Shown here piece after piece: positions 3,087 to 25,579 of a stretch of DNA of 64,000 nt. Location: positions 417,231 through 481,230 of the forward strand of contig JABLYA010000001.1 in NCBI GenBank assembly GCA_013177855.1, read 5' to 3'. Position 1 is the stretch's first letter. Each line of letters starts with the position of its first letter. This DNA comes from Ignavibacteria bacterium. Lineage in GTDB: Bacteria > Bacteroidota > Ignavibacteria > Ch128b. The notes under the pieces are model-generated. The model saw only the letters and a list, made by a program, of their open reading frames with translations. It had not been told where the DNA came from and searched no databases. Position numbers and translations under genes: made by a program.

Positions 3087-3165
3087 GAAACGAAAAATTT
3101 CTAAAGAATGAATAAACAAAGCGCCTGATTGAAAGAAAACAACCAGACGCTAAACATTATAAAAA

Positions 3166-5901
3166 TTATTTCAGCATCATCATTTTCATTGTCTTTACAA
3201 ACTTACCAGCTACCATTCGATAAATGTAAATACCACTCGAAACTCTTGAACCATAATTGTTTGTTCCGTCCCATTCAACACTATGATAACCTGGTCTTAA
3301 TTCTTCATTTATTAAAGTTTTAACTTCTCGTCCTAAAACATCATAGACTTTAATTGTGACTTTTTCTGCAACCGGCAAACCAAATCTGATTATTGTACTC
3401 GGGTTGAATGGATTCGGGAAGTTTTGACTCAAGAAGAATGTATTTGGAACAACATTCGGATCAATCACACTAACCTGTCCTGATGCTTCCTGGAGAATTA
3501 TTGCATCTGCACGAGTTACGAAACTATCCTGTAATGCACGATTAACTACACTATCTTGATAATAAATATTTACTTCATTATGGTCATTAATCAATTTAAT
3601 ATTTCCAAATATAGTTCCACCGCCATACATATCCTGGCCACCTCTTAAGAATATATATCGACCTAAATAAATTCTACCATTGGATGGAACATCACCACCA
3701 TAAGCAGTTGAGTTTTGATTCTTCTTTACAATAGTTGTTCCCTGAGTATGGTTAATTTCATAAACAGCAACTGGGTTTCCAGTGCTTGAACCGGCTGGAA
3801 CAACTGCCCAAACATCGAAGCTGTCTGGTTCAACGGGTGGATGTCCAGGTTTTGATGGAAATCTTGGGAACCACTGAATAAATCTTAATGGATCGTTTGG
3901 AGTTCCGTTATATTGACTTCCATAGATATAGGTAATTAATCTTTGATTGTTAGTTCCGCTGCCAGAGATTCTCTGCCATTGATTGAGGTTAGTTGGATTT
4001 GTTGGATTCCAATCAACGATTGGTGTACTTACATAAGTTGTTGGATCTGAATCATCAACTAAGATATTTGTTCCAACACCCTGACCGGAGAGCGTAATGT
4101 TGATGTATCTGTTATTAACAGTATCATTAGTCCACATTCTCAAGGTTGCTGAATGAAGTCTTATTGAATCAGGTAAGAATGAGATTGTCAGGTTATAAAC
4201 ACCATCAATAGCAGGAAGAGTTAAAGGCTGAGGAGGCATATTTTCAATTACGAAATAAGCACTATCACGACCAATGATCATAATTGAATCAACTACAAGA
4301 GGTGTTTCACCATTGCTTCTGATTTGTAAACCTCTCTGGTAATTAAACTCAGCTTGTCGTATTGAGTCATAGATAGAAACTGAGCCAAAGCTTAATATTC
4401 TATTAGTTGCATCTGCTGATGTAGTTGCTGTCGGTGCAATTGGGAGAAGTCTTACTCTCAACAAATCAGTTCGTAAGAAATTACCACTGGCCTGACCTGG
4501 ATTTTCAAATTTAACATAAGTTACACCACCACCATTCAAATCAAAAACTCTTGTATTATTATCTTGAATTTTTGCCCAAAGAACCGATCCAGTGACCTGT
4601 CTTTCATTAAAGTTGTATACTCTTTGTGTATCAGCAATGAAAGGAGTGACAACTGAGATTGTTGCATTTGTAGCAGCATTTGGAGATCCTGATGGACCAG
4701 AATATTCCATCAAATACTTACCAGCTAAAGTATCTGGTAATTGGAAACCATAAGTTGCTGATGGAAAGTCGGTTGTTCCAGTGTAAACACGGCTATATTG
4801 GTTACCACCTGGAATTGGGAAAATAAAATTAGACTTCGCTGAATTAAGCCATGCTTGAATACCAGTTTCTACATAAGAAGTTGGTTCAGGGGCATTCCAG
4901 TGTGGTTCATTTCCTGAAGAGGCATTCATAATAAAATTATAGTTGATACCCTCACCGCGAACTGGTAAAATGGCTTCAGGTTCATATGGGTCATTACTAT
5001 GAATTACCATTGTATCCTGTGTTGCTTCCTCGCCTTTAGGTGAAAATCTGATAGTTAATTCCGCCTTATCACCAGGTTGCAAAGTTATTGGTAATGGAGT
5101 TATGCATGAGAAACGATTTGTGGAAAAAGTTACATTAGAAATGACTAAATCTGAATCACCTAAATTCCATACTGGAATTTTTTTATCTGAATACTGTCCC
5201 CATTTAAATGTTGTTTGAGGAAAATCTTCAATCATTCTTGTAGTATCGAATGCAGTCATATGACGACGGCCAAATTCAAGATCTGGCCCTGGACCAGGAC
5301 TTCTTAAAACTCTAATAGCATCAACACGCATAAATGCTGGTGTAAGTGTATCAGCACCAATTGTAACAATCAAACCTTTTTGAGCAGCCGGCACATTAAT
5401 TATTCCAAGTGGTTTCCAGCTTCCTGTGGAACCAGTAGTTACATTATTGCTCTGGATATCGTAACGGAAACTGTCAGCAGTTACTCCTTCACCAAATCGT
5501 TTAAAAGTTACATATGCATTACTGGTTGCATTACCAGTAAATCCCATATAATGATAAACAAGATAGTAATCTGAAACAGGAATATTAATATAATATGTAG
5601 CCGAAGCTCCGTTAGGCGAACCAGCTGTTCTTGGTGTTCGTCTATGAGATCCGCCATACCAGGCACTTCCTACATTTGACCACCATCCATCAGTTTCATT
5701 CGGTGTTCCAGCAAGCGGCGCAACTTCGCAATATGTAGAATCATCACACAATACTGTTCCAGGTGCATTCGCAGTATTGTTATCATTCAGGTTATCCACA
5801 GTGATATAATTAGCTGGATCAAGTATCTGCTGTGCCTTTACTGGCAAAGCGATTAAAACAATAAATAAGATTGTTATAAAAAAGTATTTGTTTTGAGCCA
5901 T
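3166..5901 (-). CDS. Large secreted protein with T9SS type A C-terminal sorting domain; function unknown
   Basis: 911 aa. Signal peptide MAQNKYFFITILFIVLIALPVKAQQ. C-terminal NFPNPFNPSTIIRFGLP...KVYDVLGREV...GIYIYRM matches the Por secretion tail. Last gene of the co-directional cluster. Confidence 0.7.
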   Translation of the reverse strand: MAQNKYFFITILFIVLIALPVKAQQILDPANYITVDNLNDNNTANAPGTVLCDDSTYCEVAPLAGTPNETDGWWSNVGSAWYGGSHRRTPRTAGSPNGASATYYINIPVSDYYLVYHYMGFTGNATSNAYVTFKRFGEGVTADSFRYDIQSNNVTTGSTGSWKPLGIINVPAAQKGLIVTIGADTLTPAFMRVDAIRVLRSPGPGPDLEFGRRHMTAFDTTRMIEDFPQTTFKWGQYSDKKIPVWNLGDSDLVISNVTFSTNRFSCITPLPITLQPGDKAELTIRFSPKGEEATQDTMVIHSNDPYEPEAILPVRGEGINYNFIMNASSGNEPHWNAPEPTSYVETGIQAWLNSAKSNFIFPIPGGNQYSRVYTGTTDFPSATYGFQLPDTLAGKYLMEYSGPSGSPNAATNATISVVTPFIADTQRVYNFNERQVTGSVLWAKIQDNNTRVFDLNGGGVTYVKFENPGQASGNFLRTDLLRVRLLPIAPTATTSADATNRILSFGSVSIYDSIRQAEFNYQRGLQIRSNGETPLVVDSIMIIGRDSAYFVIENMPPQPLTLPAIDGVYNLTISFLPDSIRLHSATLRMWTNDTVNNRYINITLSGQGVGTNILVDDSDPTTYVSTPIVDWNPTNPTNLNQWQRISGSGTNNQRLITYIYGSQYNGTPNDPLRFIQWFPRFPSKPGHPPVEPDSFDVWAVVPAGSSTGNPVAVYEINHTQGTTIVKKNQNSTAYGGDVPSNGRIYLGRYIFLRGGQDMYGGGTIFGNIKLINDHNEVNIYYQDSVVNRALQDSFVTRADAIILQEASGQVSVIDPNVVPNTFFLSQNFPNPFNPSTIIRFGLPVAEKVTIKVYDVLGREVKTLINEELRPGYHSVEWDGTNNYGSRVSSGIYIYRMVAGKFVKTMKMMMLK

Positions 5902-5914
5902 AGTACCTCCTGAT

Positions 5915-6361
5915 TTATTTTTGTTTTTTTAAAGTTACAACCAAGGTATCAGAAGGTGGTCCAATAAAAGATACTTTGACACCCGTTCTGATATCTGTTT
6001 TGGTTCCAATTGGATAGACCAGATAATAAAGCCTCAAACTGTCCGTAACAGTTGGTAATACAGAATCTGCAAAGGTATATTTCTGATAATTAGAAACTAT
6101 GATTTTAAAATTATCTGGATACTTTTGAGAACGATAAATTTCAAAATATCTTAAATTAGAAGTATCGGGCAACTCCCAGCTCATCACAACTCTTCGCTTG
6201 CCTGTCAATGTTGTATCTACTGCGTCAACTTTAAAGTTGGTTACTTTCGGAACTATTGAAAAATGGTAAGGGGATATTAAATCTTCGGTTTTTGAACAAC
6301 CCATAACTATTAGTGTCAAGATAAAGATTATAAGAATATATTTTTTCATACCTGCCTTCAT
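5915..6361 (-). CDS. Small lipoprotein, possible Fn3-like fold
   Basis: 148 aa. MKKYILIIFILTLIVMGCS lipobox. 1-nt overlap (TAATG) with the upstream gene's stop indicates translational coupling. Confidence 0.5.
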   Translation of the reverse strand: MKAGMKKYILIIFILTLIVMGCSKTEDLISPYHFSIVPKVTNFKVDAVDTTLTGKRRVVMSWELPDTSNLRYFEIYRSQKYPDNFKIIVSNYQKYTFADSVLPTVTDSLRLYYLVYPIGTKTDIRTGVKVSFIGPPSDTLVVTLKKQK

Positions 6362-6936
6362 TAATTTAATGGTATTGCGATTGAAATTAAGTGACCTTTA
6401 TTATAATCTGATTTATAAGAAAATTCGATCGGACCTTTATCTTCTGTCCAGAATAAATAATCAACTAAATTCAATGACCACACAAAAATTGTCGCTGCAG
6501 TAAAAATATTTCTTGCTTTTTCGTGCATCTTTTGTTCATCGCGAACGCTCACCATTTGTTTCCAATAATAATCTGCAAGCGTAAATCTGTCCGCATTTAG
6601 ATAATCAAACTCTAAACTTTGCAAACGTTCTCTATTCCCAATAAAATTATTTTGTGAGACAATTGCACCAACCAAACCAGTAAAAAATGTAACCGCAAAA
6701 GCAGCACCTTTTGTCTGATGCCCTAAATATATTTGACCACTTCCAGGTACAAAAACACTATATGCAAGTCCTGTGATTCTCCTCGAATCAAATCGGGGTA
6801 ATTGAAAGAGCTCTTTTTTATTCTTATTAGATCTTAACTCTTGATAAATTTGATTTGAAAAATTAGAACCGCTTTGTGCATAGGAAATATTTAAAACTGA
6901 TAAGAACAATACAAGCAAGAATACTTTTTTTATCAT
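6361..6936 (-). CDS. Secreted/membrane protein with PGSGQ motif (DUF5683-like); hypothetical
   Basis: 191 aa. Signal peptide. Motif SVFVPGSGQIYLGHQTKGAAFAVTFFTGL followed by a hydrophobic segment. Family name is from memory and not searched. Confidence 0.4.
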   Translation of the reverse strand: MIKKVFLLVLFLSVLNISYAQSGSNFSNQIYQELRSNKNKKELFQLPRFDSRRITGLAYSVFVPGSGQIYLGHQTKGAAFAVTFFTGLVGAIVSQNNFIGNRERLQSLEFDYLNADRFTLADYYWKQMVSVRDEQKMHEKARNIFTAATIFVWSLNLVDYLFWTEDKGPIEFSYKSDYNKGHLISIAIPLN

Positions 6937-6945
6937 ACTAACTCT

Positions 6946-8817
6946 CTACTTAATTAGAACAAATTTTTTAATTAGAGACCTACCGGTCGTTGTTAGTTTA
7001 TAAAAATATGTTCCACTCGAAATATTGTAAAGTGATGAATTAAATTCAACTTCATACTTCCCTGGTGTTTGATAATCATTAATTAAATCAGCGATTTTTT
7101 GTCCGAGCAAATCGAAAATTTCGAGTTTAATTTTCTCTGAGTAGAAAATTTCATAACTAATTTTTGTAGTTCCATTAAATGGATTTGGAAAGTTCTGATA
7201 AAGGATAGCGGTGCTTGGAATATTGGCAAAATCATACTCAACATTTGTTGAGACCATATTAGAAATTTCGCTCTCATTATCAAGTCGATCAAGTGCTGAT
7301 ACGGCATAATAATAGACTTGAGTTGTATCAGTAATTGTATCAAAGAAAAATGTATCAGCAGTTGCAGTTATTTTATAAAGATGAGCTGGATTATTCTGGT
7401 TAATTGGTTCTGTAGCTCTAAAAATATTATAATATTCTGCTACTTCACCATCACTGGCTACCTGAGGTTTATTCCAGATTAACCGATATTTATCAGATGA
7501 AATTTTCTGAACTATTAAATTCGTTGGTTTATTGGGTGGAATAGGATCTTTCCATGGCATCGGCGGAACATTAGCAGGATACTTGAATAGATCCTGAGCA
7601 AGACTATCAAGAAAATTTACTGAATTAACCATACTTCTAAATCTGAAGAAATTAACGCCAGCACCGCCAATTAATCTTGTATAGATAATTTGATTTTTTA
7701 TTTCATTAAAATCTCCAAATGTTGGATCTCCTATTCTATATGCAGCAATCCCCATCCATGCCTGTCTTCCGCTCAGATTATTTTTCCACCAGCTTGCAAC
7801 TTTTGTAAACTCGGGACAAGTCGACATATTCCAGTAAATCTGTGGATTGTGATAATCAATATAACCTTTTGCAGCCCAGGCTTTTGGATCTGATCTTAAT
7901 TGAGAATACAACTCCCAGACAGAACAATTTAATCCCATTGCTGCTGCAGTGTATACTCCCGGAGTTGTCGTACCAATTTTAACCCATGGTTTATATTTCT
8001 TTACTGAATCAGCCACCATTTTCAATAGACGCTCTATATTTAAACGAGCGAAATCATTTCGATTTAAATTCCATGGATTTCCATTTGCTGAATCAGTCCT
8101 GTTTGTAAACCAATAATTTGAGGCATCACCATATAGAAGAGCTTCATTTCCTAGATCAGTATAACGAATAAAATCAAAATGAATTCCATCTACATTGTAA
8201 TTTTTTACAATTTCTGTTGCAACATTTGCGATATGGGCTCGAACAGCTGGATTTCCAGGATCAAAGAAAAATCCGCCATCGCTTTTCATCTGACCTGTTG
8301 AAGTTTTCGCGAACCATTCTGTTTTCCAGTATCTTTTACCATCAGAACTATCTTTGATCGCCGGGTGTCTTGGAAATGAAATCACATTCAGATATCCTGG
8401 CAGAGTATCATTAAGAACATAAAATGTATTTATCCATGCATGAACTTCAATATTATGCTGCTTAGCTCTTGAAATCATTTCTGAAAGAGGATTATAACCA
8501 GGACTCAAACCTAAATTATTCGGATCAACACAAGGGCTGAAGCAAGTTAAATTAGATGCCCAAGGTAAAAAATTAGATGAGTAATAAGCATCACCACGTG
8601 CACTCACCTGAAAGACAATTGTATTAATATTGGCTCTTCTACAGGCATCCACAAAAGATTGAATTTCGGCCCTTTGAGCTTGAACTCCCTGTGTTGTGGG
8701 GAAATCTAATCTTCCAGCTGTTGCAATCCAGACTGCTCTAACCTCTCTTCGCTGAGCTTCAAGAAAATTAAAAAGTGAGATCGAGAACAAAATTGCTAAA
8801 ATTAAAAGCTGTCTCAT
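6946..8817 (-). CDS. Glycoside-hydrolase-like family 10 (GHL10/YngK-like) protein with Fn3 and T9SS type A C-terminal domain
   Basis: 623 aa. Signal peptide. REVRAVWIATAGRLDFP motif typical of GHL10/DUF187. C-terminal ILYQNFPNPFNGTTKISYEI...FDLLGQKI...GTYFYKL T9SS tail. Confidence 0.65.
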   Translation of the reverse strand: MRQLLILAILFSISLFNFLEAQRREVRAVWIATAGRLDFPTTQGVQAQRAEIQSFVDACRRANINTIVFQVSARGDAYYSSNFLPWASNLTCFSPCVDPNNLGLSPGYNPLSEMISRAKQHNIEVHAWINTFYVLNDTLPGYLNVISFPRHPAIKDSSDGKRYWKTEWFAKTSTGQMKSDGGFFFDPGNPAVRAHIANVATEIVKNYNVDGIHFDFIRYTDLGNEALLYGDASNYWFTNRTDSANGNPWNLNRNDFARLNIERLLKMVADSVKKYKPWVKIGTTTPGVYTAAAMGLNCSVWELYSQLRSDPKAWAAKGYIDYHNPQIYWNMSTCPEFTKVASWWKNNLSGRQAWMGIAAYRIGDPTFGDFNEIKNQIIYTRLIGGAGVNFFRFRSMVNSVNFLDSLAQDLFKYPANVPPMPWKDPIPPNKPTNLIVQKISSDKYRLIWNKPQVASDGEVAEYYNIFRATEPINQNNPAHLYKITATADTFFFDTITDTTQVYYYAVSALDRLDNESEISNMVSTNVEYDFANIPSTAILYQNFPNPFNGTTKISYEIFYSEKIKLEIFDLLGQKIADLINDYQTPGKYEVEFNSSLYNISSGTYFYKLTTTGRSLIKKFVLIK

Positions 8818-8818
8818 T

Positions 8819-10282
8819 TTATCTCTTTCTTTCAGAAACGTACTGAATTAAGTTTTGGCCAAAATTCAAAGCTTCTGTACTTTCTGTTTTTTCATGCCAG
8901 AGAGCCACATAACCTTTATTCGAAATAATTGCAACAAGTTTTCCATCAACAAAAAGTCCGTCAATCACATCATTTTTACCGACTTTTGGATTAACATCAT
9001 CATATCCTTTTGGAAGCTGATAGAAATTATTTGGTGATTTAAATATTGGATGATCAATGGAAATTCTTTTTATTTCACTTTTACCCTGCAAGCGATTAGA
9101 AATCTGGGTTGTTATATCTAACATTGTTTGATAATATGGCCAATCCGCAGTTACAAATGCATTATCAAAAAAGATTACACCACCATTTTGAATTACCTTT
9201 GCTAGTTTATCAAACATTACAGAACTTACATCTGGTTTTCCGTATCCGCCAATTAGGATTACAAGATTTGCTTTATTTACATCCAGAGCATCAACTGTGG
9301 CTCTTGAGAATTGGCAATTTGCTGTGCCTTTGGAGTTCACATATCTGACAAGTTCCGGGATTGCTTCAGGGAATGGATTCCAGGTTTCCAATGCCTGATA
9401 TCTTGATTCCGAAGAAGTGTATTGCAATTGAACAATATTAATCTCTTTTGCTTTTTTCAGAGTGTCAGATTTTTGAACACCAGTTGTATCGAAAGTTCTT
9501 ACACCAGCAACCCAATTTTTATCAAGCTTAGTTTTTCTAAAGTAAAATGAATAATTAGCAAATTTATCAGGTTCATTATTCTCGTTATAACCAAGGATAA
9601 ATTTTCTAAGTGTTAGCTTAATTCGATCGACCGATTCATCTAAAGGATCAAAGACAATGAAACCTTCACGATAGTCACCAGCATAAATTGGTTTTCCGTA
9701 AGTCAACATAGTCCGTCGGACAATTCCCATCCTTGATTCAAAAACATCATCATCAATACCGCTTGAACCTTTTCGCTTTAAGAAATACTCTTCAATACTT
9801 TGATAACGAGCATCTTTCTTTTCTCTACCATATGCGTTTAATTTATCTCCGCGATCTGTTTCGAGTAAAGCTTCTTCAGGATCGATGTTAATCTTTGAGC
9901 TTGTATAATTATAAACTGTTACCTTAAAGACAGTGAACCTTTGAGGTGTGTAACCCTTTTCTGGATCAATCCAATCTCCATAAGTGTAAGGATTTTTCGA
10001 ATAGAAGCCGCCCTTTGAATCTTCAGGAAATTCGAAAGTATTCAGCTGATAGTCTGTCATATATTTGACTTCAATTTTGAAATCTTTTTTATCCATTATG
10101 ATAGTCAAACTGTCTTTAGAAAATCTGTAGGTTGAATCACAGAAAAATAAAGTGTTTTCCCTATCTGGAATGAACATAAATTCTTCTCTTTCGGGCGGCA
10201 TAAAAATGTATCTATAGACGGAGTCACACCCAGTTAAAAACACTAAAGATAGAATTACGAATAGTAAAATTTTCTTTTTCAT
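8819..10282 (-). CDS. Lipoprotein with C-terminal DUF4159-like (class I glutamine-amidotransferase-like) domain
   Basis: 487 aa. Lipobox LFVILSLVFLTGCDS. C-terminal LVILIGGYG...GGVIFFDNAF...HPIFKS...GLFVDGKLVAIISNKGYVALW is paralogous to the C-terminus of the adjacent 438-aa protein. 4-nt overlap with the upstream gene. Confidence 0.5.
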   Translation of the reverse strand: MKKKILLFVILSLVFLTGCDSVYRYIFMPPEREEFMFIPDRENTLFFCDSTYRFSKDSLTIIMDKKDFKIEVKYMTDYQLNTFEFPEDSKGGFYSKNPYTYGDWIDPEKGYTPQRFTVFKVTVYNYTSSKINIDPEEALLETDRGDKLNAYGREKKDARYQSIEEYFLKRKGSSGIDDDVFESRMGIVRRTMLTYGKPIYAGDYREGFIVFDPLDESVDRIKLTLRKFILGYNENNEPDKFANYSFYFRKTKLDKNWVAGVRTFDTTGVQKSDTLKKAKEINIVQLQYTSSESRYQALETWNPFPEAIPELVRYVNSKGTANCQFSRATVDALDVNKANLVILIGGYGKPDVSSVMFDKLAKVIQNGGVIFFDNAFVTADWPYYQTMLDITTQISNRLQGKSEIKRISIDHPIFKSPNNFYQLPKGYDDVNPKVGKNDVIDGLFVDGKLVAIISNKGYVALWHEKTESTEALNFGQNLIQYVSERKR

Positions 10283-11595: not shown

Positions 11596-11605
11596 TTCAG
11601 CTCAT

Positions 11606-12019: not shown

Positions 12020-12020
12020 C

Positions 12021-12890: not shown

Positions 12891-12909
12891 GGTTAATCCT
12901 CCATTAAAA

Positions 12910-15900: not shown

Positions 15901-16068
15901 GCTTTCAGTATACAAAATATAATCATACATTCGTATCGCATTTTTATAGTCTCGTGAGACAAAATAATTTTGTCCCGCCTGGAACGCATTTTTGAATTCC
16001 TGCGGTGTTGGAATAAAATAACTAACTATTGTTGCGATTACAAAAAAAATCAACTGCCACATATTCAA
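12910..16068 (-). CDS. Tetratricopeptide-repeat protein, N-terminally membrane anchored
   Basis: 1052 aa. N-terminal hydrophobic helix WQLIFFVIATIVSYFIP. More than 20 TPR-like repeats with the A/Y/G periodicity throughout. Zero-nt gap to the upstream gene. Confidence 0.75.
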   Translation of the reverse strand: MNMWQLIFFVIATIVSYFIPTPQEFKNAFQAGQNYFVSRDYKNAIRMYDYILYTESKFVDEDSIKVGILNNEFIISVRAAAAYMKGNAFKQMNYSDSAIHYFRIVSLRKDEPKLAALAQFQIYDIYYKLGRYDEAIEEAFKLFIKFPNDKKSEQALYDIGWAYRETNKLDSSSILFHKLLEKYPNTEYYARALYQIAQNYFDMGNYDLALEHWLELINKFQPEIFTKKDWEKIELKAEKERRLFEVTEGRDVETTDLELVAKAYIKIGDAYRKLNNYDLAISYYRKIITTFTLIPSLQEVAWIKIADYTLEAKGLQEAIAVYRDAIDQNFQNKKLQAKFQFKIAETYQNARMFSKAAEEYDIYIYSYESVADAIDFSVDKAKLAVILNYYNAKEFQNAIAHCDSFITKYAYSDLVPTVFNIKASSQNFAGDYEAARKTLETLIRNFPTHDETINAKIQLGFTLYKLGDYTSALETIDEILNNPDTKKKIDTSEAYYYRLITLADSKRYDEAIATFENINFYSPYYPGAVNKICKIYSARSEFDTGEKFLQNVLKITEERKDSLNIINDIYFNFADLYINKGDYNSALDYLNKILSDTTIFEKRETFALQVRYIRGIINYQVENFTSAIGDLEFVLDNKLFKNAFAQNIDNAYEKLALSYAKIGELEKGVSIFQNLINQTNDQIQIGKYYSTLSTIYFEGNRYKESIEYANKSLAVPGLDTSTIIVNYLNLANSYKELGDLKKAGDLLFEASNKFPTAPEIQDILFQLAALYYDNQDFEQAIKIFNRYLSQYPDGIHKKDAIMFKAYAQYEIGDWQNAYNTMKTFVSLYPQDPKAPDMQYYAGECMFNMKKFDQAIKEYQLTYRRYPKSDLAAAAMYNEGWCYYELQKPDQMIETFKILAQRFPKSEYAPHGLYTIGDYYYNIKDYQNAANYYSELKKRYPDYEKIQEVDELLYDLSQINSYLEYEKAMKFFDEKNYEKAIEELMKVLKKYPDASVAVGCRVNIAASYEMLEKKKEAIKWYEEVIKLYENSKDENERAAYLFAKEHKEWLESQ

Positions 16069-19047
16069 TTAGAAACCAGTGTAAATTGAGAAATACAAAG
16101 TTGATTCTTCACGACCTTTAAATCTGTCTTCTTCTCGCTTGAAATCTCTTGTTGTGTATTTATACCCGAAATCAATTACAATATTATAACCAGCATATTG
16201 AGATTTATTGCTCAAAGATAAAGCAATGGTTCTGCGATCTTCACTTTCAAAATCATCCTTTAAATTTCTAATTCTATAAGCGAGTGGTGAAACTCCTTTG
16301 AGAAATGTAATACCTTGCATTCCAAAATGTAATGTTGTGCTTTGAGTTAATCGATAATCCACTCTTATGATTGGAATAGTTTCCTGCATATGTTTATTGA
16401 TTACTGTAATCTTATCTCCATCTTTATTCTCAGTGAACTTTGATGATTTTTCTGTTCTTACTTTGAATTGTGGAATTACTTTCAAAGCGTTATTTAAGAA
16501 AGAAAATTCATATTCTATTTTATTAACCATTCCGAAGAAAGAAATCCTGCCTTCTACCTGATCATTCAACAATCTGCTTTCATTTGCAAATGCAAGAAGT
16601 CTATTACCTTGAGCAAATTGATGATTAAGCTGAAATCTTAAATTGTTTTCAATTCTAAGATTTGGAATTTGCGTGTAAGTTGTCCCGATATAAAGATTAT
16701 TAACTAGACTGTTTTTATATAATAAAGGATCAAGCACATAATCAGGGAATGGGTCAGCTGTTGTGATTACACCAGGGAATTGATAACAATCATTTGGAAT
16801 ATTGTCTTTAACCTGTTTCAAGACATAAAAAATTCTTAAAGAACCAAATTTGGGTGTCTCTGTGAAATAAGTCAGTTTGAAATAATTAACATAATTTTTT
16901 CCGCCTTTTAACAATCCTTCTTCTCTTAATAATCCAAATCCAATATTAAAATTTTTAATGAGTTCGAGTGTCGTAAATAAATGATAACCTTTTTGATCAG
17001 GAGTATATGGATAATCCGGCAAGATGTCGTTTTCCTGTTCGTCGATTACATCGTTATTGTTCCAATCATCTCCATAATCGAGACTTGGTGGATCGGAATA
17101 GAATGTTAAGAAATCCTGTGCATAATCTGGAATTCCATCGGCATTTTTATCATCATCAGGAATTCCATCACGATCTCTATCTTTCCCAGGAAAGATACCG
17201 GTGTCAGGTCGTCTTAAAATTGTTGCTAAACTTACCAGCTCATTTGTATTTTGACGATAACCAAGTAAGAAGAAATCACCTACTCTATTCAAAACATCTC
17301 TATTCTTGCCTCTTGAGTCAGTTGTAAATACATTGTAATGATAAAATCCATCTTCCCATCTATCATTATCATCATTGTCATCAACTAACGCATAGTATGC
17401 ACCGCCAGGAATAATTGCACCGCTGCTGGATGCGTCATAACCCAAAAAGTCGGGATAAATAGGATTTGGAATTAAATTATCAGATGGTGAGCTGTAAAAA
17501 CTATTTTCAAGTGTGTAAATATTCAATGCTGTAGTGTAAGTTCCATCAATTCTATAAATTTCTCCACCTAATGTTAATCTTCCAAGTTTCTTTTTTCCTC
17601 TCAAGAACCAGGCTTGTCCAGATATATCTTGTTCTTCTCCAGATTTACCGGTAAATCTTTTATCACGAATTATTGGATACTTGAAATGTTCTTTACTTTG
17701 ATTGAATTCACCTTCAATTTCAAATCCTTTCCAATTAAAGGTGAAATTAAATCCATAAACTTCCATACCTGTAACAAGTCCGTATGAGAAAGTTACAATT
17801 TGTTTATTTGAAGCATCTGTTACATTTCCTTCAGCTCTTCGAATTGTTCTAAATGGAGTAGGCGTTGCATAAAGTTCAGGGTCAGTGTGAGATTGAAATC
17901 TTGCGTCACCAGTGTATTCGTCAAGTCTATTTAACCAATCGTGAGCGATGTCAATTCGATAATCATTGGCAAGGATTAATTGAAATTGAACCGAAGTTGC
18001 ACCTTCAGGAATTACGAATGCGTAGGTGATGTTTTCACCATCACGACTTCCAATCTTAACTGGATAACTTGGTGGAAATGTTGAGTATCTGTCTCTGTAA
18101 TTGATATATCTTGTAAAACTTGTTGTATCAGCGCCTGCAAAGAAATCTTTTGCATTAATCCAAAAATTTCTAAAAACCCAATACTGGATTGGATCATTCA
18201 ATGTAGTTGCCGCTGAGTTTGGGACAGAGCCGTGAATATTTTTAATTGGTCTTGCAACACCATTTATGATAATCGTTGGAGGCTGATAAATAATTGGACC
18301 CGAAAGATCTCCAGGACTATCATCACTAATTCTAACAAAAATTACTCTTGGAATTGCATTTGAAACAACTCCTTTTAACGAAGACTCACGACTATCAATG
18401 CTTGCTCTTCTCTGATGCTGATTTAAATAAGTTATTCCAACTGTTAAAATATCACCAATATCAGTTTCGAAATGTCCGCCAAGAAGATATTGCGTCCAAT
18501 CTCGAATTCTTCTCACACCATCTGAATAAAAGCCCTGATCAAATCTAAATCTAATTGGATCGCTTATTCTTGAAATTAAAACGGTTCCTCTATTTTTAGC
18601 CGTTGCACCATCCCATCTGATACCATTAAATCTTGCTTTGTCGAGAGTCAAACTCGTGAATTTTGTTCTAATTGCATCACCGACCATAAGTCGAGTAGTG
18701 AACCCACCATAACTATCATTTCCAATTACAAGATTGCTGAAATAATTTTCATAATATCTGGACTTTAAAAAATTGCTCTGACCGCCAGGAATATTTTGAT
18801 CAATTGCTTGTTTTTGCTGTTCATTAAACTCAATAACAGGATAACCTTCAATCAAGAAATTTCCAAAGTTGTCGAAGAATTTTTTCTTCTCAATTTTAGA
18901 GCTGTAATTCTCATAATTTCTCCCGGAAAGGTTTATGTATTTTTCTTCTTCCTTTCCGAGATTTGAAATGAATTGAGCATTTGTAATTGAAACCAAACTT
19001 AAAATCAAACTCAATGAAGTAAATATTCTTTTCAATTTAACCTCCAA
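16069..19047 (-). CDS. Large outer-membrane beta-barrel-like protein with thrombospondin type-3 calcium-binding repeats
   Basis: 992 aa. Signal peptide LSLILSLVSITNAQ. Alternating aromatic/hydrophobic beta-strand pattern and C-terminal ...LYFSIYTGF. Internal DRDRDGIPDDDKNADGIPDYAQD repeat at about 17110-17200. Confidence 0.5.
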   Translation of the reverse strand: MEVKLKRIFTSLSLILSLVSITNAQFISNLGKEEEKYINLSGRNYENYSSKIEKKKFFDNFGNFLIEGYPVIEFNEQQKQAIDQNIPGGQSNFLKSRYYENYFSNLVIGNDSYGGFTTRLMVGDAIRTKFTSLTLDKARFNGIRWDGATAKNRGTVLISRISDPIRFRFDQGFYSDGVRRIRDWTQYLLGGHFETDIGDILTVGITYLNQHQRRASIDSRESSLKGVVSNAIPRVIFVRISDDSPGDLSGPIIYQPPTIIINGVARPIKNIHGSVPNSAATTLNDPIQYWVFRNFWINAKDFFAGADTTSFTRYINYRDRYSTFPPSYPVKIGSRDGENITYAFVIPEGATSVQFQLILANDYRIDIAHDWLNRLDEYTGDARFQSHTDPELYATPTPFRTIRRAEGNVTDASNKQIVTFSYGLVTGMEVYGFNFTFNWKGFEIEGEFNQSKEHFKYPIIRDKRFTGKSGEEQDISGQAWFLRGKKKLGRLTLGGEIYRIDGTYTTALNIYTLENSFYSSPSDNLIPNPIYPDFLGYDASSSGAIIPGGAYYALVDDNDDNDRWEDGFYHYNVFTTDSRGKNRDVLNRVGDFFLLGYRQNTNELVSLATILRRPDTGIFPGKDRDRDGIPDDDKNADGIPDYAQDFLTFYSDPPSLDYGDDWNNNDVIDEQENDILPDYPYTPDQKGYHLFTTLELIKNFNIGFGLLREEGLLKGGKNYVNYFKLTYFTETPKFGSLRIFYVLKQVKDNIPNDCYQFPGVITTADPFPDYVLDPLLYKNSLVNNLYIGTTYTQIPNLRIENNLRFQLNHQFAQGNRLLAFANESRLLNDQVEGRISFFGMVNKIEYEFSFLNNALKVIPQFKVRTEKSSKFTENKDGDKITVINKHMQETIPIIRVDYRLTQSTTLHFGMQGITFLKGVSPLAYRIRNLKDDFESEDRRTIALSLSNKSQYAGYNIVIDFGYKYTTRDFKREEDRFKGREESTLYFSIYTGF

Positions 19048-19060
19048 AGGTTTTCATCAA

Positions 19061-19969
19061 TTAAAATTGATATGTAAGGGATATTTTATGACCACCGCTA
19101 AGACCAGTAATTTGAATATGATTTGAATATGCATAATCAATCTTTAATCTATTAACAAAAACTCCAAAACCTCCATTTAAGGAATTCTGCTTGAATGGAC
19201 TCTCATTCACGATACCATTGTATCCTCCTCTCAAAAACAATCCGGATTCAACACCATAAACTTTTGATTTCATTGCAAGGAATTCAGCGCCGAATTTTAT
19301 CAATAAATTTTCTTCTTCTTTAATTCCGTCAATTGCAAATAAATATTCATAAGTTGGTGAATAATAAGAAATTCCAAAAGCTAATTTCATTGGTAACTTT
19401 GCATCATCTGAACCATTAATTGAGATACTTGGTTGAGTTATATCTTGAGCAGCAGCACCAAATTTTAATACTCCATTTCCAAACACTTGATAAATTGAAT
19501 AAAAAACTCCAGCATCAAAAGTAAATCCAAGATAACTTTTTGCTTCTTCGCCCGGTGCAGCTTGAGCACTCCATCCTAGTAATTTAAAACTTCCGCCTAA
19601 TCCAAAATTGCCAATGTCTTTTGCATAACTTAAGATCAGAGTATTTTCTTGCCAGGCACCTGCTTTCAAATGAGTTAATCCTGCACCAAGGTCTCCGAAT
19701 TTCCACAAAGGCACTGTGGAAGAAAAAGCTAGATAATACAAATCTTCATCCAAACCAGTAAATAGTTGATTATAAGTCGAAGAGATTTCAAATCTTTTAA
19801 CATTTATTAGACCCGCAGGATTATAAAATACGGTGTAAGATGCATCACCAACTCCAGTATAAGCTCCACCTAGACCAATTATCCTGCTATGAACACCGAG
19901 ATTTTCAAATCCGCCAGCAAAGATGCTTGAGCTAATGAATACCAGAATTAAAATTAATATCTTTTTCAC
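19061..19969 (-). CDS. PorV/PorQ-family (FadL-like) T9SS outer-membrane protein
   Basis: 302 aa. Signal peptide. N-terminal SRIIGLGGAYTGVGDASYTVFYNPAGL matches the PorV/PorQ signature (...GMGGA...ADDASA.YWNPAGL). Ends ...ISLTYQF with a beta-barrel terminal Phe. Confidence 0.55.
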   Translation of the reverse strand: MKKILILILVFISSSIFAGGFENLGVHSRIIGLGGAYTGVGDASYTVFYNPAGLINVKRFEISSTYNQLFTGLDEDLYYLAFSSTVPLWKFGDLGAGLTHLKAGAWQENTLILSYAKDIGNFGLGGSFKLLGWSAQAAPGEEAKSYLGFTFDAGVFYSIYQVFGNGVLKFGAAAQDITQPSISINGSDDAKLPMKLAFGISYYSPTYEYLFAIDGIKEEENLLIKFGAEFLAMKSKVYGVESGLFLRGGYNGIVNESPFKQNSLNGGFGVFVNRLKIDYAYSNHIQITGLSGGHKISLTYQF

Positions 19970-19983
19970 TTTGACCTCAAAAA

Positions 19984-21696
19984 TTAATAGACAACTGTTA
20001 CAATTTTTGCAACCTGTTCTGTTTTAGCATCTGCTTCAACTAAAACCTGTACAATATATGGTCCTGGTCGAACTGTCTTACCATTTTCATCTTTACCATC
20101 CCATACAAATGAATTTTGTGCAATAAATGCTGCTGCTCCAGAAGTTGAATTATAAAATTCTCTCACAAGTCTACCTTGTAAATCATAGATCAGAATTTTT
20201 AATTTTCTTAATTCACCACCGACAAGACTTCTTGGTTCAGCAATATTTGCAAGGAAAAAAGAAAGAACAGTTTGATCATTAATTCCATCGCCATTTGGTG
20301 TAAATGGATTTGGTTCTACTTTAAAATCAATAATTAATTTCGGAGGAACTCCTGTTGTAACAATACTCCAATTTTCAAGTCCACCAAATTTTTTTGTATC
20401 AACTCTCTGTGGATTGTCAGGACTTTGTTTACTATGTAGATAAGAAACAAATCTATTCACACCTAAAAATGGCGTGCATTTTAATGTAGCCTCAAAAGTT
20501 ATTGATGTTGTAATTGGAGACTGTGGAATAATTACAATCTTGTTCGCATAAATCTCTGCTGAGTATTGAATCGGATTATTATCAAGTTTTACTCCAAGTA
20601 ATTGTGTCGGTGTAGGAGTAAAAATCGTAATTGTATCAATTGGATAATCAGTTGGAGATTTATTGATTACGATTTTGTAAGAAAAAGTATTTTCCTGCAA
20701 GATTGGTGAATATTGAGGACTGATTGTTGCATCAGTTGATTGAGCGATTAAAGTCTTATCAAAGAAAATTTCAACTTCATCTACTTTGGGAGTTTGTAAT
20801 GTTAATGTTCCCAGTCTGACCTGATATTGAACATATCTCCTCGGTTCATAAACTGGAAGTTGTGTTCCGGAGATCGTAGTTGAATCTTCATTCCAATTAC
20901 TCCAGGTTGTATCAACTTTTGGAGTATTTCCTGTTCTCATTCGCAGAGAGATTTGAGTACCTTCAGGTTGTTCTGCCTTCCATGTAATTTTTGACCAGTT
21001 AACCGGTTGACCTGCATCGAGAACCTTTGAAGTGAAATATCCTTCAGGTAAATAACCTTTTCCAAAAACTTCAATTTCCGAAATAACTGTACTTTGAACT
21101 TGATCAATTACATCAATTGTAATTTTCAAGAAACGAATTTCAACTACTCTATCGAAATAATCATCTGTTACACCTAAAGTATTTTCCGGAACTTGAACAA
21201 GTTTTTCCATAGAAAGAGTATCAAGTCCGCCATAAATTGTATAAGCTCTAACTCGAAGGTTGGTTGGAATATTTGTAGGACCACCGGGATAAAATCCAAG
21301 CTGCCAGATTCTTACTCTATTGACAGCACGAACAGCTTGAAGATCAATTACGATGTAAGTCCCTTCTCCACCTGGCCCAGCATTTAAAGAAAGAATTTGA
21401 ACATATGAAGGTGAGAAAAATTTTCCATCGATTAGTTTTAAAGCATTTCTAGCGGCAGTATCAGGTGGAAGATTTCGGCTTTTATACACAATGTAAGCAT
21501 ATTTATTTCGAGCAAGATTTTCATTCTCACCTGTTTGAAGAAGAAGTTTTCCCTGTTCAGTTTTCCAGTCGACTGCGGAAGTTAAAGTTGAGTCAACAGA
21601 GAAATCGTTCCAGGTTGTATCTTTTATTGAGAATTGGCTATGAAGAAGAGAAGAAGTAAGAATGGTTATTACAATTGCGAGTTTAAGTTTTTTCAT
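19984..21696 (-). CDS. Secreted protein with discoidin-like N-terminal region and T9SS type B (CHU_C/gliding-associated) C-terminal domain
   Basis: 570 aa. Signal peptide. C-terminal EPNPFTPNGDGINDQ...LKILIYDLQGRLVREF...FVWDGKDENGKTVRPGPYIV matches the type B sorting-domain signature. First gene of the cluster, about 115-nt upstream gap. Confidence 0.65.
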   Translation of the reverse strand: MKKLKLAIVITILTSSLLHSQFSIKDTTWNDFSVDSTLTSAVDWKTEQGKLLLQTGENENLARNKYAYIVYKSRNLPPDTAARNALKLIDGKFFSPSYVQILSLNAGPGGEGTYIVIDLQAVRAVNRVRIWQLGFYPGGPTNIPTNLRVRAYTIYGGLDTLSMEKLVQVPENTLGVTDDYFDRVVEIRFLKITIDVIDQVQSTVISEIEVFGKGYLPEGYFTSKVLDAGQPVNWSKITWKAEQPEGTQISLRMRTGNTPKVDTTWSNWNEDSTTISGTQLPVYEPRRYVQYQVRLGTLTLQTPKVDEVEIFFDKTLIAQSTDATISPQYSPILQENTFSYKIVINKSPTDYPIDTITIFTPTPTQLLGVKLDNNPIQYSAEIYANKIVIIPQSPITTSITFEATLKCTPFLGVNRFVSYLHSKQSPDNPQRVDTKKFGGLENWSIVTTGVPPKLIIDFKVEPNPFTPNGDGINDQTVLSFFLANIAEPRSLVGGELRKLKILIYDLQGRLVREFYNSTSGAAAFIAQNSFVWDGKDENGKTVRPGPYIVQVLVEADAKTEQVAKIVTVVY

Positions 21697-21811
21697 TTTG
21701 TATTTCAGCTCTATAGTTTTTGTTTATTAAACTATCACAAAATTAATAAGCAGTTAAAATTAAAAAAATTTACAATACACAATTAACTATAAAAACCGGT
21801 CTTGATGATTT

Positions 21812-22768: not shown

Positions 22769-22778
22769 TTTTTCTCTC

Positions 22779-24104: not shown

Positions 24105-24116
24105 ATTTCAATCTCC

Positions 24117-25577: not shown

Positions 25578-25579
25578 AA

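Follow-up and report, generated by a model that had tools for sequence, protein, structure and literature searches.

The closest described counterpart of the locus analysed here is a class of transducers reported in 2025, in which an SHLS helix is combined with a vWA head and the neighbouring genes encode TPR proteins and TolQR (PMC12204202). In the better-known case of E. coli TonB, the periplasmic segment carries the D-box QPISVTMVTPAD, a stretch with a hydrophobic/hydrophilic pattern between prolines (PMC10907165). The initial annotation of our locus started from the premise that Ton/Tol motors pair with TonB or TolA heads and remarked that the cluster contains neither; the remark holds, but the premise does not hold generally, given the vWA precedent for a non-TonB head. 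In the cluster described below, found in a 64,000-nucleotide window (the whole stretch of DNA that was analysed), the corresponding position is occupied by DUF4159, a domain of which the literature we searched makes no mention outside a Pfam database paper.

Cluster layout and conservation

Recomputing the open reading frames returned the same twelve co-directional minus-strand genes between positions 3166 and 21696 that had been noted before (Table 1), with the same junctions, which according to the ORF coordinates measure, in transcription order, +14, +13, 0, +19, +1, +10, -4, +1, +9, -1 and +13 nt. Co-directionality as such is little informative, because nearly all ORFs from 741 to 50346 lie on the minus strand; the unit is delimited by its tight junctions together with the flanking gaps, which are wider than the internal ones (115 nt upstream, 232 nt downstream), and by synteny across phyla. 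The upstream gap is the only one on the 5' side that exceeds 19 nt. The Bacteroidetes -7 promoter consensus is TAnnTTTG, and TAATTTTG within this gap, a candidate promoter element, fits it. Downstream of gene 12, two strong minus-strand hairpins follow each other at 3151..3120 (12 bp stem) and 3086..3048 (16 bp stem plus T-run), and no hairpin of comparable strength was found inside the cluster. On inspection of the translations, each of the twelve products carries a signal peptide, a lipobox or a membrane anchor, and Pfam/NCBIfam profile searches reproduced nearly all of the domain calls made earlier.

Table 1. Features of the cluster, in window coordinates
Feature	Position	Strand	Basis
Gene 1, 570 aa, secreted surface protein, divergent discoidin (F5/8 type C) domain and type-B CTD	19984..21696	-	CHU_C, signal peptide
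Gene 2, 302 aa, PorP/SprF-PorV/PorQ-family outer-membrane barrel	19061..19969	-	PorV_fam; PorP_SprF in orthologues
Gene 3, 992 aa, predicted large outer-membrane beta-barrel, unnamed family	16069..19047	-	AlphaFold2 model
Gene 4, 1052 aa, giant TPR protein, short N-terminal hydrophobic anchor	12910..16068	-	many TPR families
Gene 5, 289 aa, ExbB/TolQ-family proton-channel stator subunit	12021..12890	-	MotA_ExbB, E 7e-28
Gene 6, 137 aa, ExbD/TolR-family stator subunit, transmembrane Asp D20	11606..12019	-	ExbD, E 2e-34
Gene 7, 438 aa, putative TonB/TolA-like force transducer, DUF4159 head	10279..11595	-	DUF4159, E 1e-28, residues 207-417
Gene 7 transmembrane helix, residues 28-47, S35-x3-H39	11455..11514	-	H39 invariant
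Gene 7 D-box-like strand, residues 59-70, PPTTVKFIQRAP, proline-flanked	11386..11421	-	conserved block, alignment A1
Gene 8, 487 aa, lipoprotein, D8N (~22-275) and DUF4159 (298-482)	8819..10282	-	lipobox LTGC; DUF4159, E 1e-9
Gene 9, 623 aa, GHL10 glycoside-hydrolase-like enzyme, type-A T9SS CTD	6946..8817	-	GHL10, E 4e-40; Por_Secre_tail, 38 bits
Gene 10, 191 aa, DUF5683 small membrane protein, PGxGQ motif	6361..6936	-	DUF5683, 29.2 bits
Gene 11, 148 aa, small lipoprotein	5915..6361	-	lipobox VMGC
Gene 12, 911 aa, type-A T9SS cargo, choice-of-anchor D / ASH-Ig-like, adhesin-like	3166..5901	-	profile matches
Two terminator-like hairpins, just 3' of gene 12	3048..3151	-	T-rich tails after stems
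AT-rich gap 5' of gene 1, presumed promoter region	21697..21811	-	115 nt

Conservation as a unit, on which the original reading depended, was found across several phylum-level lineages. Among 80 species-representative loci, the order of type-B-CTD discoidin protein, PorP/PorV-family barrel, ~1000-aa barrel, ~1050-aa TPR protein, ExbB/ExbD and two DUF4159 proteins recurs in Ignavibacteria, Kryptonia, KSB1/Zhuqueibacterota, Zixibacteria and Marinimicrobia (Neomarinimicrobiota), while Latescibacterota and Gemmatimonadota have variant forms without the PorP-like gene; eight to eleven genes hold the same order over five or more phylum-level lineages, with identities of 30-60%. Counted over loci that are phylogenetically non-independent, the order of the window occurs in 22, a shuffled order (TPR, DUF4159, ExbB, ExbD, ExbD) in 5, an ExbD upstream of gene 1 in 10, and genes 1-4 followed by gene 7 in 40 in all. 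The motor module is rearranged or swapped between loci, with either a single ExbD or two of them accompanied by a PstS-like gene, and its linkage is kept.

The motor and its transducer

The channel motifs of ExbB are conserved among 45 homologues, and the transmembrane aspartate of ExbD is at least 95% conserved in 71 sequences. Among the NCBIfam models, the motor proteins match TolQ (96 bits) and TolR (68 bits) better than ExbB and ExbD; both scores lie far below the equivalog cutoffs. Two canonical TonB-dependent receptors are encoded elsewhere in the window, and these may be additional, or even the actual, clients of the ExbBD pair.

The gene 7 product had been singled out for a TonB-like topology with a non-TonB head, and this description has gained strength from its histidine motif, its D-box-like strand and its long disordered linker. 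AlphaFold2 predicts a transmembrane helix (residues 13-45), disorder from 52 to 165 (~110 residues) and a globular part at 170-438 (pLDDT about 90). H39 is shared by all of 19 diverse homologues, and the transmembrane motif [S/A]xxxH is present in 80/89 family members. ExbB/ExbD genes lie near the transducer in 37/39 loci with the histidine motif vs 1/6 without it, when phylogenetically non-independent loci with flanks of at least 6 kb are counted; loss of the motif thus tracks the absence of ExbBD from the locus. There are exceptions: two loci (L088, L089) retain the histidine, yet have no ExbBD within 10 kb, and in one variant locus (L007) the motor is present and the DUF4159 transducer absent. 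Beyond the helix, the block P-x-x-[VIMA]-[KRE]-[FYL]-[IVE]-x-[RT]-x-P is conserved, with P70 invariant (homologue P0075 reads PISVKFVQRAP), and a short pattern match likens this block to the D-box of E. coli TonB (PMC10907165). On these sequence features, the N-terminus looks TonB/TolA-like.

The head is of another kind. Both HMM searches (Pfam/NCBIfam) and fold comparison (Foldseek) found TonB_C absent from the 438-aa protein, and 4i66 was the best structural match (E 5e-13), ahead of IFT52 GIFT and ThuA-like folds, so that, as modelled, the head is a class-I-amidotransferase (GATase1)/GIFT/ThuA-like alpha/beta fold. Because the homologue alignment contains invariant His, Asp and Glu residues in DUF4159, an enzymatic rather than a docking role of the head is possible. 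The second DUF4159-like copy that had been reported is borne out as well: in the lipoprotein encoded by gene 8 the domain is paralogous to the gene 7 head (E 1e-16). Its N-terminal domain D8N occurs in related loci either alone or fused to TonB_C in place of DUF4159. The earlier statement that a TonB C-terminal domain is absent here is right for the 438-aa protein, but TonB_C is no stranger to the system as a whole, and the lineage-dependent fusion of D8N to DUF4159 or to TonB_C suggests that the heads are interchangeable.

Outer-membrane and surface components

The gene 1 product itself scores below the gathering cutoffs for CHU_C (22.7 bits) and FlgD_ig (25.2 bits); among its orthologues, CHU_C is matched in 12/12 and F5_F8_type_C in 10/12. 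Gene 2, which directly follows a type-B-CTD gene in 40 loci, scores 81.6 bits against NCBIfam PorV_fam, just below the 90-bit cutoff, with Pfam PorP_SprF matched in 3/14 orthologues, and its barrel is the presumed anchor of the gene 1 product. Pairs of a type-B-CTD protein and a PorP/PorV-family barrel have been described before as a T9SS anchoring module, so that part of the cluster belongs to known T9SS biology, and the portrayal of the cluster as unlike any described T9SS module does not extend to genes 1-2.

Gene 3 has no family match in Pfam or NCBIfam, and AlphaFold2 models its product as a large outer-membrane barrel without specific relative. The mature N-terminus (QFI...Y.NYSGRNYENYS) is strongly conserved, yet predicted to be disordered. 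Around residues 617-680 the alignment contains D-rich DxDxDG-type motifs with many invariant Asp/Asn residues that resemble calcium-binding loops, which is all that can be seen of the TSP3 repeats proposed in the initial annotation, with no TSP_3 match obtained at E<0.01. The presumed periplasmic scaffold encoded by gene 4 has YbgF/CpoB- and BamD-like repeats, a length kept at 1037-1125 aa across phyla and, at the N-terminus, a conserved hydrophobic segment with a 'PTP/PSP' motif behind it.

The GHL10 and Por_Secre_tail assignments of gene 9 were confirmed, but as a part of the cluster this T9SS cargo is accessory, being present in 11/80 loci. The GHL10 family includes the E. coli septal glycan hydrolase DigH. 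DigH has been discussed alongside Tol-Pal (PMC12288456), and C. difficile Cwp19, which gene 9 matches at E 4e-42, belongs to the same family (PMC5765458) and cleaves peptidoglycan (PMC6016235). Gene 10 keeps its place behind gene 8 both in Ignavibacteria and in the Latescibacterota/Gemmatimonadota variants. In 29 loci, gene 11, for which no Pfam/NCBIfam family was found, stands between the DUF5683 gene and the homologue of gene 12. Gene 12, which closes the cluster in most loci, matches HYDIN_VesB_CFA65-like_Ig (E 1e-11), choice_anch_D (45.7 bits) and TIGR04183 (Por_Secre_tail, 30.7 bits).

Discussion

We argue, with a probability of roughly 0.6, that the cluster specifies a single machine spanning the envelope: a Ton/Tol-type force-transduction system that is powered by the proton-motive force and has a non-canonical transducer and a dedicated outer-membrane and surface complex. 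In the inner membrane, ExbB and ExbD would form the stator, on which the 438-aa transducer would dock in the manner of TonB/TolA through its Ser-x3-His N-terminal helix, with the proline-flanked strand ~12 residues past the helix taking the place of the TonB D-box, the element captured by ExbD. The ~110 disordered residues would then cross the periplasm and present DUF4159, instead of TonB_C, to the outer-membrane part of the system, where the ~1000-aa barrel and/or the DUF4159 lipoprotein paralogue are candidate contacts and the disordered N-terminal peptide of the barrel a candidate 'box'. With the TPR protein presumably serving as the periplasmic scaffold, the PorP/PorV-family barrel holding the discoidin protein on the cell surface, and type-A T9SS cargo co-expressed (the adhesin-like 911-aa protein and, in some lineages, the GHL10 hydrolase), the pulling force of the motor would reach a dedicated complex, and its output might be to move or remodel the surface protein, to gate the barrel for uptake or to tether the envelope. 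The nearest precedent for a DUF4159-headed transducer is the vWA-headed class (PMC12204202). If true, this would be an envelope machine without prior study, conserved over several Bacteroidota-related phyla and working through a connector head that has never been characterised.

The role in motility, adhesion or secretion assist suggested in the initial annotation is one of several candidate outputs. Of the more specific ones that can be envisaged, propulsion or remodelling of a surface adhesin seems to us doubtful: here the motor would move or tension the barrel-borne discoidin protein through the periplasmic TPR and DUF4159 parts, with a gliding-like result as in Agl-Glt, or as when GldLM drives SprB-SprF. 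The parts indeed parallel those of Agl-Glt (motor, TonB-like protein, TPR proteins, several outer-membrane barrels, surface adhesin), the type-B-CTD and PorP-family genes always adjoin at the operon head and adhesin-like type-A cargo lies at its end, but gliding has to our knowledge not been reported for these lineages, profile searches of the twelve proteins found no GldJ/K/N-like track genes, the GltC model scored 17.9 bits against a cutoff of 450, and the Latescibacterota/Gemmatimonadota variants do without the PorP-like gene. Bacteroidota SprF/PorP-type barrels are known to connect a track that moves in the periplasm with proteins at the surface (PMC12635249); the SprF-GldK disulfide mechanism, however, is inapplicable here because the translated 302-aa barrel contains no cysteine. 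Also unlikely in our estimation is energised uptake, a non-TBDT analogue of a polysaccharide-utilisation locus in which the DUF4159 transducer would open the giant barrel to import polymer fragments captured and cut by the lectin-like protein and the GHL10 enzyme. This would be consistent with the discoidin domain, of carbohydrate-binding type, in most gene 1 orthologues, with the surface targeting of a Cwp19 relative, with the placement of the barrel's N-terminal peptide, which is like that of a TonB box, and with the joining of D8N to TonB_C in related loci.

Less probable still is a role in envelope maintenance, in which the system would tether or constrict the outer membrane and coordinate cell-wall remodelling, replacing or supplementing Tol-Pal. 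Profile searches detected no Pal/OmpA_C peptidoglycan-binding domain, TolB propeller or TolA head in the cluster, the TolQ and TolR scores that favour this role fall far short of their cutoffs, and three T9SS surface cargos fit a division role poorly, even if the TPR protein reaches 199 bits with the YbgF/CpoB model (summed over 5 repeats). Membership of GHL10, the family of DigH and Cwp19, would suit cell-wall remodelling, but the enzyme should exit the periplasm because of its T9SS export signal. In favour of this role, a search for Tol-Pal loci in Bacteroidetes found none (PMC12204202). Exopolysaccharide export, with the TPR scaffold and an outer-membrane barrel acting as in BcsC, PgaA, PelB or AlgK/AlgE and the GHL10 enzyme as a trimming hydrolase, we find hardly credible. 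It is also very unlikely that there is no single machine, and that chance or regulation has placed side by side a T9SS cargo with its anchor, an ExbBD pair with a housekeeping function, and DUF4159, TPR and barrel genes unrelated to these. Strand is uninformative throughout this co-directional region, the position of ExbBD differs among lineages, some loci lack it, and the ExbB-ExbD-ExbD-PstS-like arrangement of one subclade resembles the general Bacteroidetes Ton cluster; against such a juxtaposition stand the deep conservation of gene order, the short junctions, and the motor, which remains linked despite rearrangement and whose presence co-varies with the histidine motif of the transducer.

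Results

The ORF listing of the window confirms what the initial annotation had proposed, namely twelve co-directional ORFs on the minus strand with tight junctions, which in transcription order measure +14, +13, 0, +19, +1, +10, -4, +1, +9, -1 and +13 nt. The flanks are wider, with 115 nt ahead of gene 1 and 232 nt past gene 12. On the minus strand, the downstream gap contains two strong terminator-like hairpins, whose stems of 12 and 16 bp are followed by T-rich tails. Co-directionality as such is weak evidence for the cluster, because nearly all ORFs in the surrounding ~50 kb share the minus strand; GC skew is negative throughout this run, which is probably an effect of replication direction rather than an operon signal. 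The unit is delimited by its tight junctions, the flanking gaps and, above all, its synteny elsewhere. A sigma-70 promoter scan gave no enrichment over shuffles, a result that says nothing on internal promoters, and an Rfam scan of the whole window detected no RNA element and no riboswitch upstream of the cluster. The neighbouring genes are unrelated, with a UvrD helicase downstream and peptidase and transporter genes upstream. The sequence TAATTTTG, which lies in the gap ahead of gene 1, fits the Bacteroidetes -7 promoter consensus TAnnTTTG and would be a candidate promoter element if Ignavibacteria use this type.

Coordinates of the cluster, of other features of the window and of selected homologous loci in public genomes (L-numbers)
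Feature	Position	Strand	Remarks
Twelve-gene cluster	3166-21696	minus	Twelve ORFs
Co-directional run	741-50346	minus	Almost all ORFs of at least 120 aa
ExbB C-terminal extension	12021-12200	minus	~55 residues
TAATTTTG	21740-21750		Within the 115-nt gap upstream of gene 1
Upstream neighbours	21812-25951		M29 peptidase, MFS transporter, M20 peptidase, PqqD-like protein
RND efflux operon	30693-36911		AcrB-family pump, outer-membrane factor, CusB/HlyD-type adaptor with HMBD and YHS metal-binding domains
BNR/sialidase-like gene with receptor gene	38775-42517		Type-A T9SS tail on the first product; 4-nt overlap
TonB-dependent receptor	40379-42517		Plug and barrel
TonB-dependent receptor	47647-50346		CarboxypepD_reg-Plug
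M29 gene ahead of cluster	L002:99-1070		Ignavibacteriaceae locus, 55% identity; not in other phyla
Divergent locus	L003:10001-21512		7-Mb genome
Insertion	L004:6427-9897		KSB1-like
N-domain-TonB_C fusion	L088:10001-11215
N-domain-TonB_C fusion	L089:10001-11278

All twelve translated products carry a signal peptide, a lipobox or a membrane anchor, and Pfam and NCBIfam scans of the cluster proteins reproduced almost all of the domain calls made initially. The 570-aa product of gene 1 is itself weakly CHU_C-like (22.7 bits; gathering cutoff 27); its orthologues match this type-B CTD in 12 of 12 cases (E<=1e-3, best E 2.6e-8) and Por_Secre_tail in none of the 12, and ten of them contain an F5/8-type-C discoidin domain. 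Gene 2 encodes a 302-aa barrel devoid of cysteines that scores 81.6 bits on the PorV/PorQ family model (cutoff 90), while PorP_SprF matches 3 of its 14 orthologues. The mature N-terminus of the 992-aa giant barrel (gene 3) is strikingly conserved across phyla (QFI...Y.NYSGRNYENYS) and is modelled as disordered by AlphaFold2; PDB sequence searches with the giant-barrel profile and with the 487-aa lipoprotein of gene 8 returned no match. Gene 4 encodes a TPR protein of 1052 aa, a length held at 1037-1125 aa across loci; it reaches 199 bits with TIGR02795 (CpoB/YbgF; cutoff 90), but this total adds up 5 repeat stretches and appears to reflect repeat similarity, not orthology. The motor proteins ExbB (gene 5, 289 aa; PF01618, E 7e-28) and ExbD (gene 6, 137 aa; PF02472, E 2e-34) both fall below the exbB/exbD equivalog cutoffs of NCBIfam, and their best NCBIfam matches, TolQ (96.3 bits, cutoff 221) and TolR (67.9 bits, cutoff 127.3), are likewise under cutoff. 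The transmembrane Asp of ExbD, D20, is kept in at least 95% of 71 sequences, and by its sequence the stator is intact. ExbB ends in a charged cytoplasmic extension with GVLNKEEEEFLKQKRIELNISDEEGKKLEEEV, which lies outside the MotA_ExbB domain and is poorly conserved among homologues.

Genes 7 and 8 encode the DUF4159 proteins of 438 and 487 aa considered below. The 623-aa product of gene 9 combines GHL10 with a type-A T9SS tail and matches Cwp19 of C. difficile (E 4e-42), a peptidoglycan lytic transglycosylase (PMC6016235); starch is the substrate of another GHL10 member (PMC9967864). The 191-aa product of gene 10 is a DUF5683 protein, gene 11 encodes a small lipoprotein of 148 aa, and the 911-aa cargo encoded by gene 12 carries Ig-like/choice-of-anchor-D domains and a type-A tail.

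In the AlphaFold2 model of the 438-aa protein, a helix (residues 13-45) precedes a disordered stretch of ~110 residues (52-165), and residues 170-438 form a globular head predicted with confidence. Within the transmembrane helix lies S35-x3-H39. H39 is invariant among 19 aligned homologues with identities as low as 27%, the residue four positions ahead of it being Ser or Ala, and [S/A]xxxH is found in the transmembrane helix of 80 of the 89 family members from the loci. This motif shares its position and spacing with the SHLS-motif His, the residue that TonB and TolA use for docking on their motors (PMC12204202; PMC10907165). About 12 residues past the helix there is a conserved block, PPTTVKFIQRAP, which in one homologue reads PISVKFVQRAP and in which P70 is invariant. 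As a pattern match only, its resemblance to the TonB D-box QPISVTMVTPAD is suggestive, the latter being an alternating hydrophobic/hydrophilic, proline-flanked strand just past the anchor that is captured by the ExbD dimer (PMC10907165). When only loci flanked by at least 6 kb on each side are counted, ExbB or ExbD is present in 37 of the 39 that have the His motif versus 1 of the 6 that do not, these counts being phylogenetically non-independent. Two further loci keep the His motif with no motor nearby. This has a parallel in TonB paralogues, which can use a motor in trans.

DUF4159 (PF13709; cutoff 25.9) was detected at residues 207-417 of the 438-aa protein with 100.6 bits (E 1e-28) and in the 487-aa lipoprotein with 38.3 bits (E 1e-9). 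The 438-aa protein had been proposed to be devoid of TonB_C, and this holds: it has no PF03544 match at E<0.01, no NCBIfam TonB match and a non-TonB fold. Foldseek returned a single strong match for its head, the uncharacterised Haliangium protein 4i66 (E 5e-13; TM 0.82 normalised to target), followed by the GIFT domain of IFT52, ThuA-like proteins and OST48, and we therefore predict a class-I glutamine-amidotransferase-like alpha/beta fold. Residues D243, E268, GGF 279-281, H320, H324 and D328 of the head are invariant in the 19-homologue alignment. There was no Pfam match to VWA, and no vWA structure occurred among the 50 best-listed fold matches of the head. In the literature searched, DUF4159 is mentioned in a Pfam database paper only.

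The C-terminal domain of the 487-aa lipoprotein is a paralogue of this head (E 1e-16), while its N-terminal ~250 residues form a separable domain (N-domain). The N-domain occurs alone in ~255-aa lipoproteins of KSB1, Kryptonia and one further lineage; in other lineages it is fused to TonB_C (PF03544, 18-31 bits) in ~400-aa lipoproteins (proteins P0265, P0264, P0257 and P0245). TonB_C is absent from this cluster but present in related loci, where the order around the fusions is barrel, barrel, TPR, DUF4159 transducer and the fusion itself; no ExbBD was found within 10 kb of the fusions in L088 and L089. That one and the same N-domain bears either DUF4159 or TonB_C is consistent with DUF4159 doing a docking job like that of TonB_C, and the swap amounts to a natural experiment on what a force-transducer head requires.

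Homologues of the 438-aa protein and of the giant barrel were located on public contigs, and a scan of one genome per GTDB species yielded 80 loci, in all of which ORFs were called and classed by HMMs built from the twelve window proteins (phmmer, then hmmbuild). According to record titles, these loci span Ignavibacteria, Kryptonia, KSB1/Zhuqueibacterota, Zixibacteria, Neomarinimicrobiota, Latescibacterota and Gemmatimonadota, together with one MAG labelled 'Lentisphaeria'. One of the variants (L041) is from an Ignavibacterium album MAG. Gene order is kept at 30-60% protein identity across these lineages, and the motor module, where rearranged or replaced between lineages, is still linked to the cluster, both of which argue for a functional unit. 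In Latescibacterota/Gemmatimonadota the core consists of three barrel paralogues, DUF5683, the small lipoprotein, the transducer and the TPR protein. The initial reading needs correcting in that GHL10 is accessory, KSB1, Zixibacteria and Marinimicrobia being among the lineages that have it. At E<=1e-30, the full-length transducer profile recovered 348 clusters at 50% identity among 1.84 billion representatives, and the family is therefore sizeable.

Gene arrangements among the 80 loci
Arrangement	Loci
Window order: type-B cargo, PorP/PorV barrel, giant barrel, TPR, ExbB, ExbD, DUF4159 transducer, DUF4159 lipoprotein	22
TPR gene, then transducer directly, then ExbB-ExbD-ExbD (plus PstS-like gene)	5
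Cargo gene with ExbD genes upstream	10
Genes 1-4 then transducer, all arrangements pooled	40
Tail: DUF5683, small lipoprotein, type-A cargo	29
GHL10 present	11

Several loci depart from these patterns. Five from Latescibacterota/Gemmatimonadota (L081, L083, L085, L087, L073) have three tandem giant-barrel paralogues and two TPR genes, and their cargo gene runs in the opposite direction; the membrane helix of their DUF4159 protein is without the [S/A]xxxH motif, and ExbBD is missing from four of the five, L073 having an ExbB-ExbD pair at its far end. In the divergent locus L003, the gene of a DUF4159 protein without the His motif is followed by those of three ~970-aa proteins and by a second DUF4159 gene. 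The three large proteins have no Pfam match, and the HMMs place them closer to the family of the 911-aa cargo than to that of the barrel. In L004, a HEPN/nucleotidyltransferase pair, a DUF5131 gene and small ORFs stand between the PorP-like gene and the giant barrel gene, so the cluster tolerates insertion there.

Discussion

We classify the cluster as a force-transduction system of the Ton/Tol type, with a 5:2 motor, in which both the head domain and the set of outer-membrane targets are new. Among published concepts, the force transducers with vWA heads (Williams-Jones et al., Mol Biol Evol 2025; PMC12204202) come closest; these have an SHLS-type helix, a disordered linker and a non-TonB_C head, and their genes lie next to TPR and tolQ/tolR-like genes. 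The 438-aa protein shares with that family the transmembrane helix with its conserved His, the disordered linker and the adjoining TPR and tolQ/tolR-like genes, that is, all but the head fold, which here is DUF4159 (GATase1/GIFT/ThuA-like); a vWA-type transducer is thus rejected on fold evidence. The cluster also adds a giant barrel, a PorP-family barrel and T9SS cargo, and so represents a much larger conserved gene set, and Ignavibacteria, Kryptonia, KSB1, Zixibacteria and the other cluster lineages find no mention in that paper (PMC12204202). The initial reading needs correcting in that non-TonB transducer heads as such have this 2025 precedent.

With Ton, the cluster has in common an ExbB/ExbD stator with its transmembrane Asp and a transducer whose [S/A]xxxH helix leads into a long linker, with a strand that by its pattern is a candidate D-box; in contrast to Ton, the transducer has no TonB_C head, the partner barrel is far larger and of an unrelated family, and Pfam finds no Plug or TonB_dep_Rec domain among the cluster proteins, so that membership fails on both TonB_C and TBDT. 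The TolQ/TolR-like motor, the periplasm-spanning anchor protein and the CpoB/YbgF-like TPR repeats recall Tol-Pal. However, the E. coli CpoB model PRK10803, with 263 positions, has about a quarter of the length of the TPR protein, T9SS surface cargo belongs to the cluster, and Pfam and NCBIfam detect no TolA head, TolB beta-propeller or Pal (OmpA_C lipoprotein) in the twelve proteins, on which account a Tol-Pal operon is rejected. Genes 1 and 2 form an adjacent pair like those of T9SS type-B CTD cargo and PorP/SprF-like anchors (SprB-SprF; PG1035-PorP-PorE; PMC9143113), and the nearby TPR protein recalls the TPR module of PorE (PMC12204202). The architecture put forward initially is supported, as is its status as undescribed, but its cargo/anchor pair appears to be a known T9SS module (PMC9143113). 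The match is incomplete: the 302-aa barrel scores better as PorV/PorQ family and has no twin cysteines in its C-tail, through which SprF forms a disulfide link to GldK (PMC12635249). The cluster has no PorE-like OmpA_C or propeller and, unlike GldLM/PorLM-driven systems, has an ExbBD motor of its own.

The Agl-Glt system of Myxococcus, to which Nfs is related, consists of a TolQR/ExbBD-type motor, an inner-membrane-anchored TonB-like protein, TPR proteins, several outer-membrane barrels and a surface adhesin, a part list to which that of the cluster would correspond as an analogue. No homology was shown, the GltC model NF033756 scoring 17.9 bits against a cutoff of 450. GltG/J have TonB_C heads, and the adhesin there is of vWA type rather than T9SS cargo; membership fails, the cluster having neither Glt-specific proteins nor TonB_C. 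By gene content, not sequence, the cluster may also be set alongside FSU_2396-2403 of Fibrobacter succinogenes (OmpA, TPR, TPR, ExbB, ExbD, ExbD, TonB) as a functional parallel, this being another FCB-group pairing of outer-membrane and large TPR proteins with ExbB/ExbD and a transducer. The Fibrobacter products are up-regulated on cellulose, and a multiprotein complex of the cell surface that is linked to cellulose binding was found to include the OmpA and TPR proteins (PMC6851124); that cluster differs in having an annotated TonB and an OmpA-family protein. Synthase-dependent exopolysaccharide export (BcsC/PgaA/PelB/AlgKE) fails as a candidate, no glycosyltransferase or polysaccharide synthase domain being encoded in the twelve genes or their immediate flanks. 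PADLOC models gave no match to 8 cluster proteins at E<=1e-3, which makes a Zorya-type defence motor unlikely. Nothing relevant on Ignavibacteria, ExbB and gliding together was found in the literature searched.

The transducer resembles TonB/TolA in its features for docking on the motor, has a linker of periplasmic length and ends in a non-TonB head, and it is genomically tied to the giant barrel, the giant TPR protein, the paralogous lipoprotein and the pair of type-B cargo and PorP-family barrel. We envisage that the DUF4159 head would engage an outer-membrane complex scaffolded by the 1052-aa TPR protein, and that the motor would exert its force on the giant barrel, on the surface protein anchored by the PorP-family barrel, or on both. 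A candidate contact for the head is the mature N-terminus of the giant barrel, conserved yet modelled as disordered, as a TonB box would be.

What such a system might deliver can be conceived in more than one way. Movement or remodelling of a surface protein is possible by analogy with SprB-SprF on its motor-driven track (PMC12635249), although the 302-aa barrel does not have the cysteines of SprF. Energised capture and uptake is another possibility, to which a discoidin lectin and a hydrolase at the surface would lend themselves, as would the box-like peptide of the giant barrel; against it, GHL10 is accessory and no plug is seen. The TolQR-like scores and CpoB-like repeats could be those of a system for Tol-like envelope maintenance, as could the DigH/Cwp19-family enzyme, gene 9, Cwp19 and DigH presumably sharing the GHL10 family; the GHL10 enzyme is, however, exported, and Pal, TolB and a TolA head are absent from the cluster. 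The most far-reaching reading is that of an unrecognised machine, widespread in the FCB superphylum, in which the ExbBD 5:2 motor drives surface proteins via the DUF4159 head, a third solution beside GldLM/T9SS gliding and Agl-Glt for bringing inner-membrane energy to surface adhesins, or alternatively energises non-TBDT polymer capture and uptake. We hold this reading tentatively, at a probability of roughly 0.3.

To our knowledge, few systems are known that bring inner-membrane energy to the outer membrane, namely Ton, Tol-Pal, GldLM/PorLM, Agl-Glt and Zorya, with the vWA class added in 2025. The cluster would add DUF4159 as a further transducer head, one tied to defined, conserved outer-membrane and T9SS-delivered surface partners, and would place DUF4159, DUF5683, the ~1000-aa barrel and the lipoprotein N-domain, all orphan families, in a functional context for the first time. 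It would also give a manageable set of components with which to study how the cell surface is energised in Ignavibacteria, Kryptonia, KSB1, Zixibacteria, Latescibacterota and relatives.

Elsewhere in the window, the two canonical TonB-dependent receptors outside the cluster indicate that the genome also needs a conventional TonB; one of them overlaps the gene of the BNR/sialidase-like protein. The RND operon is probably a metal efflux system.
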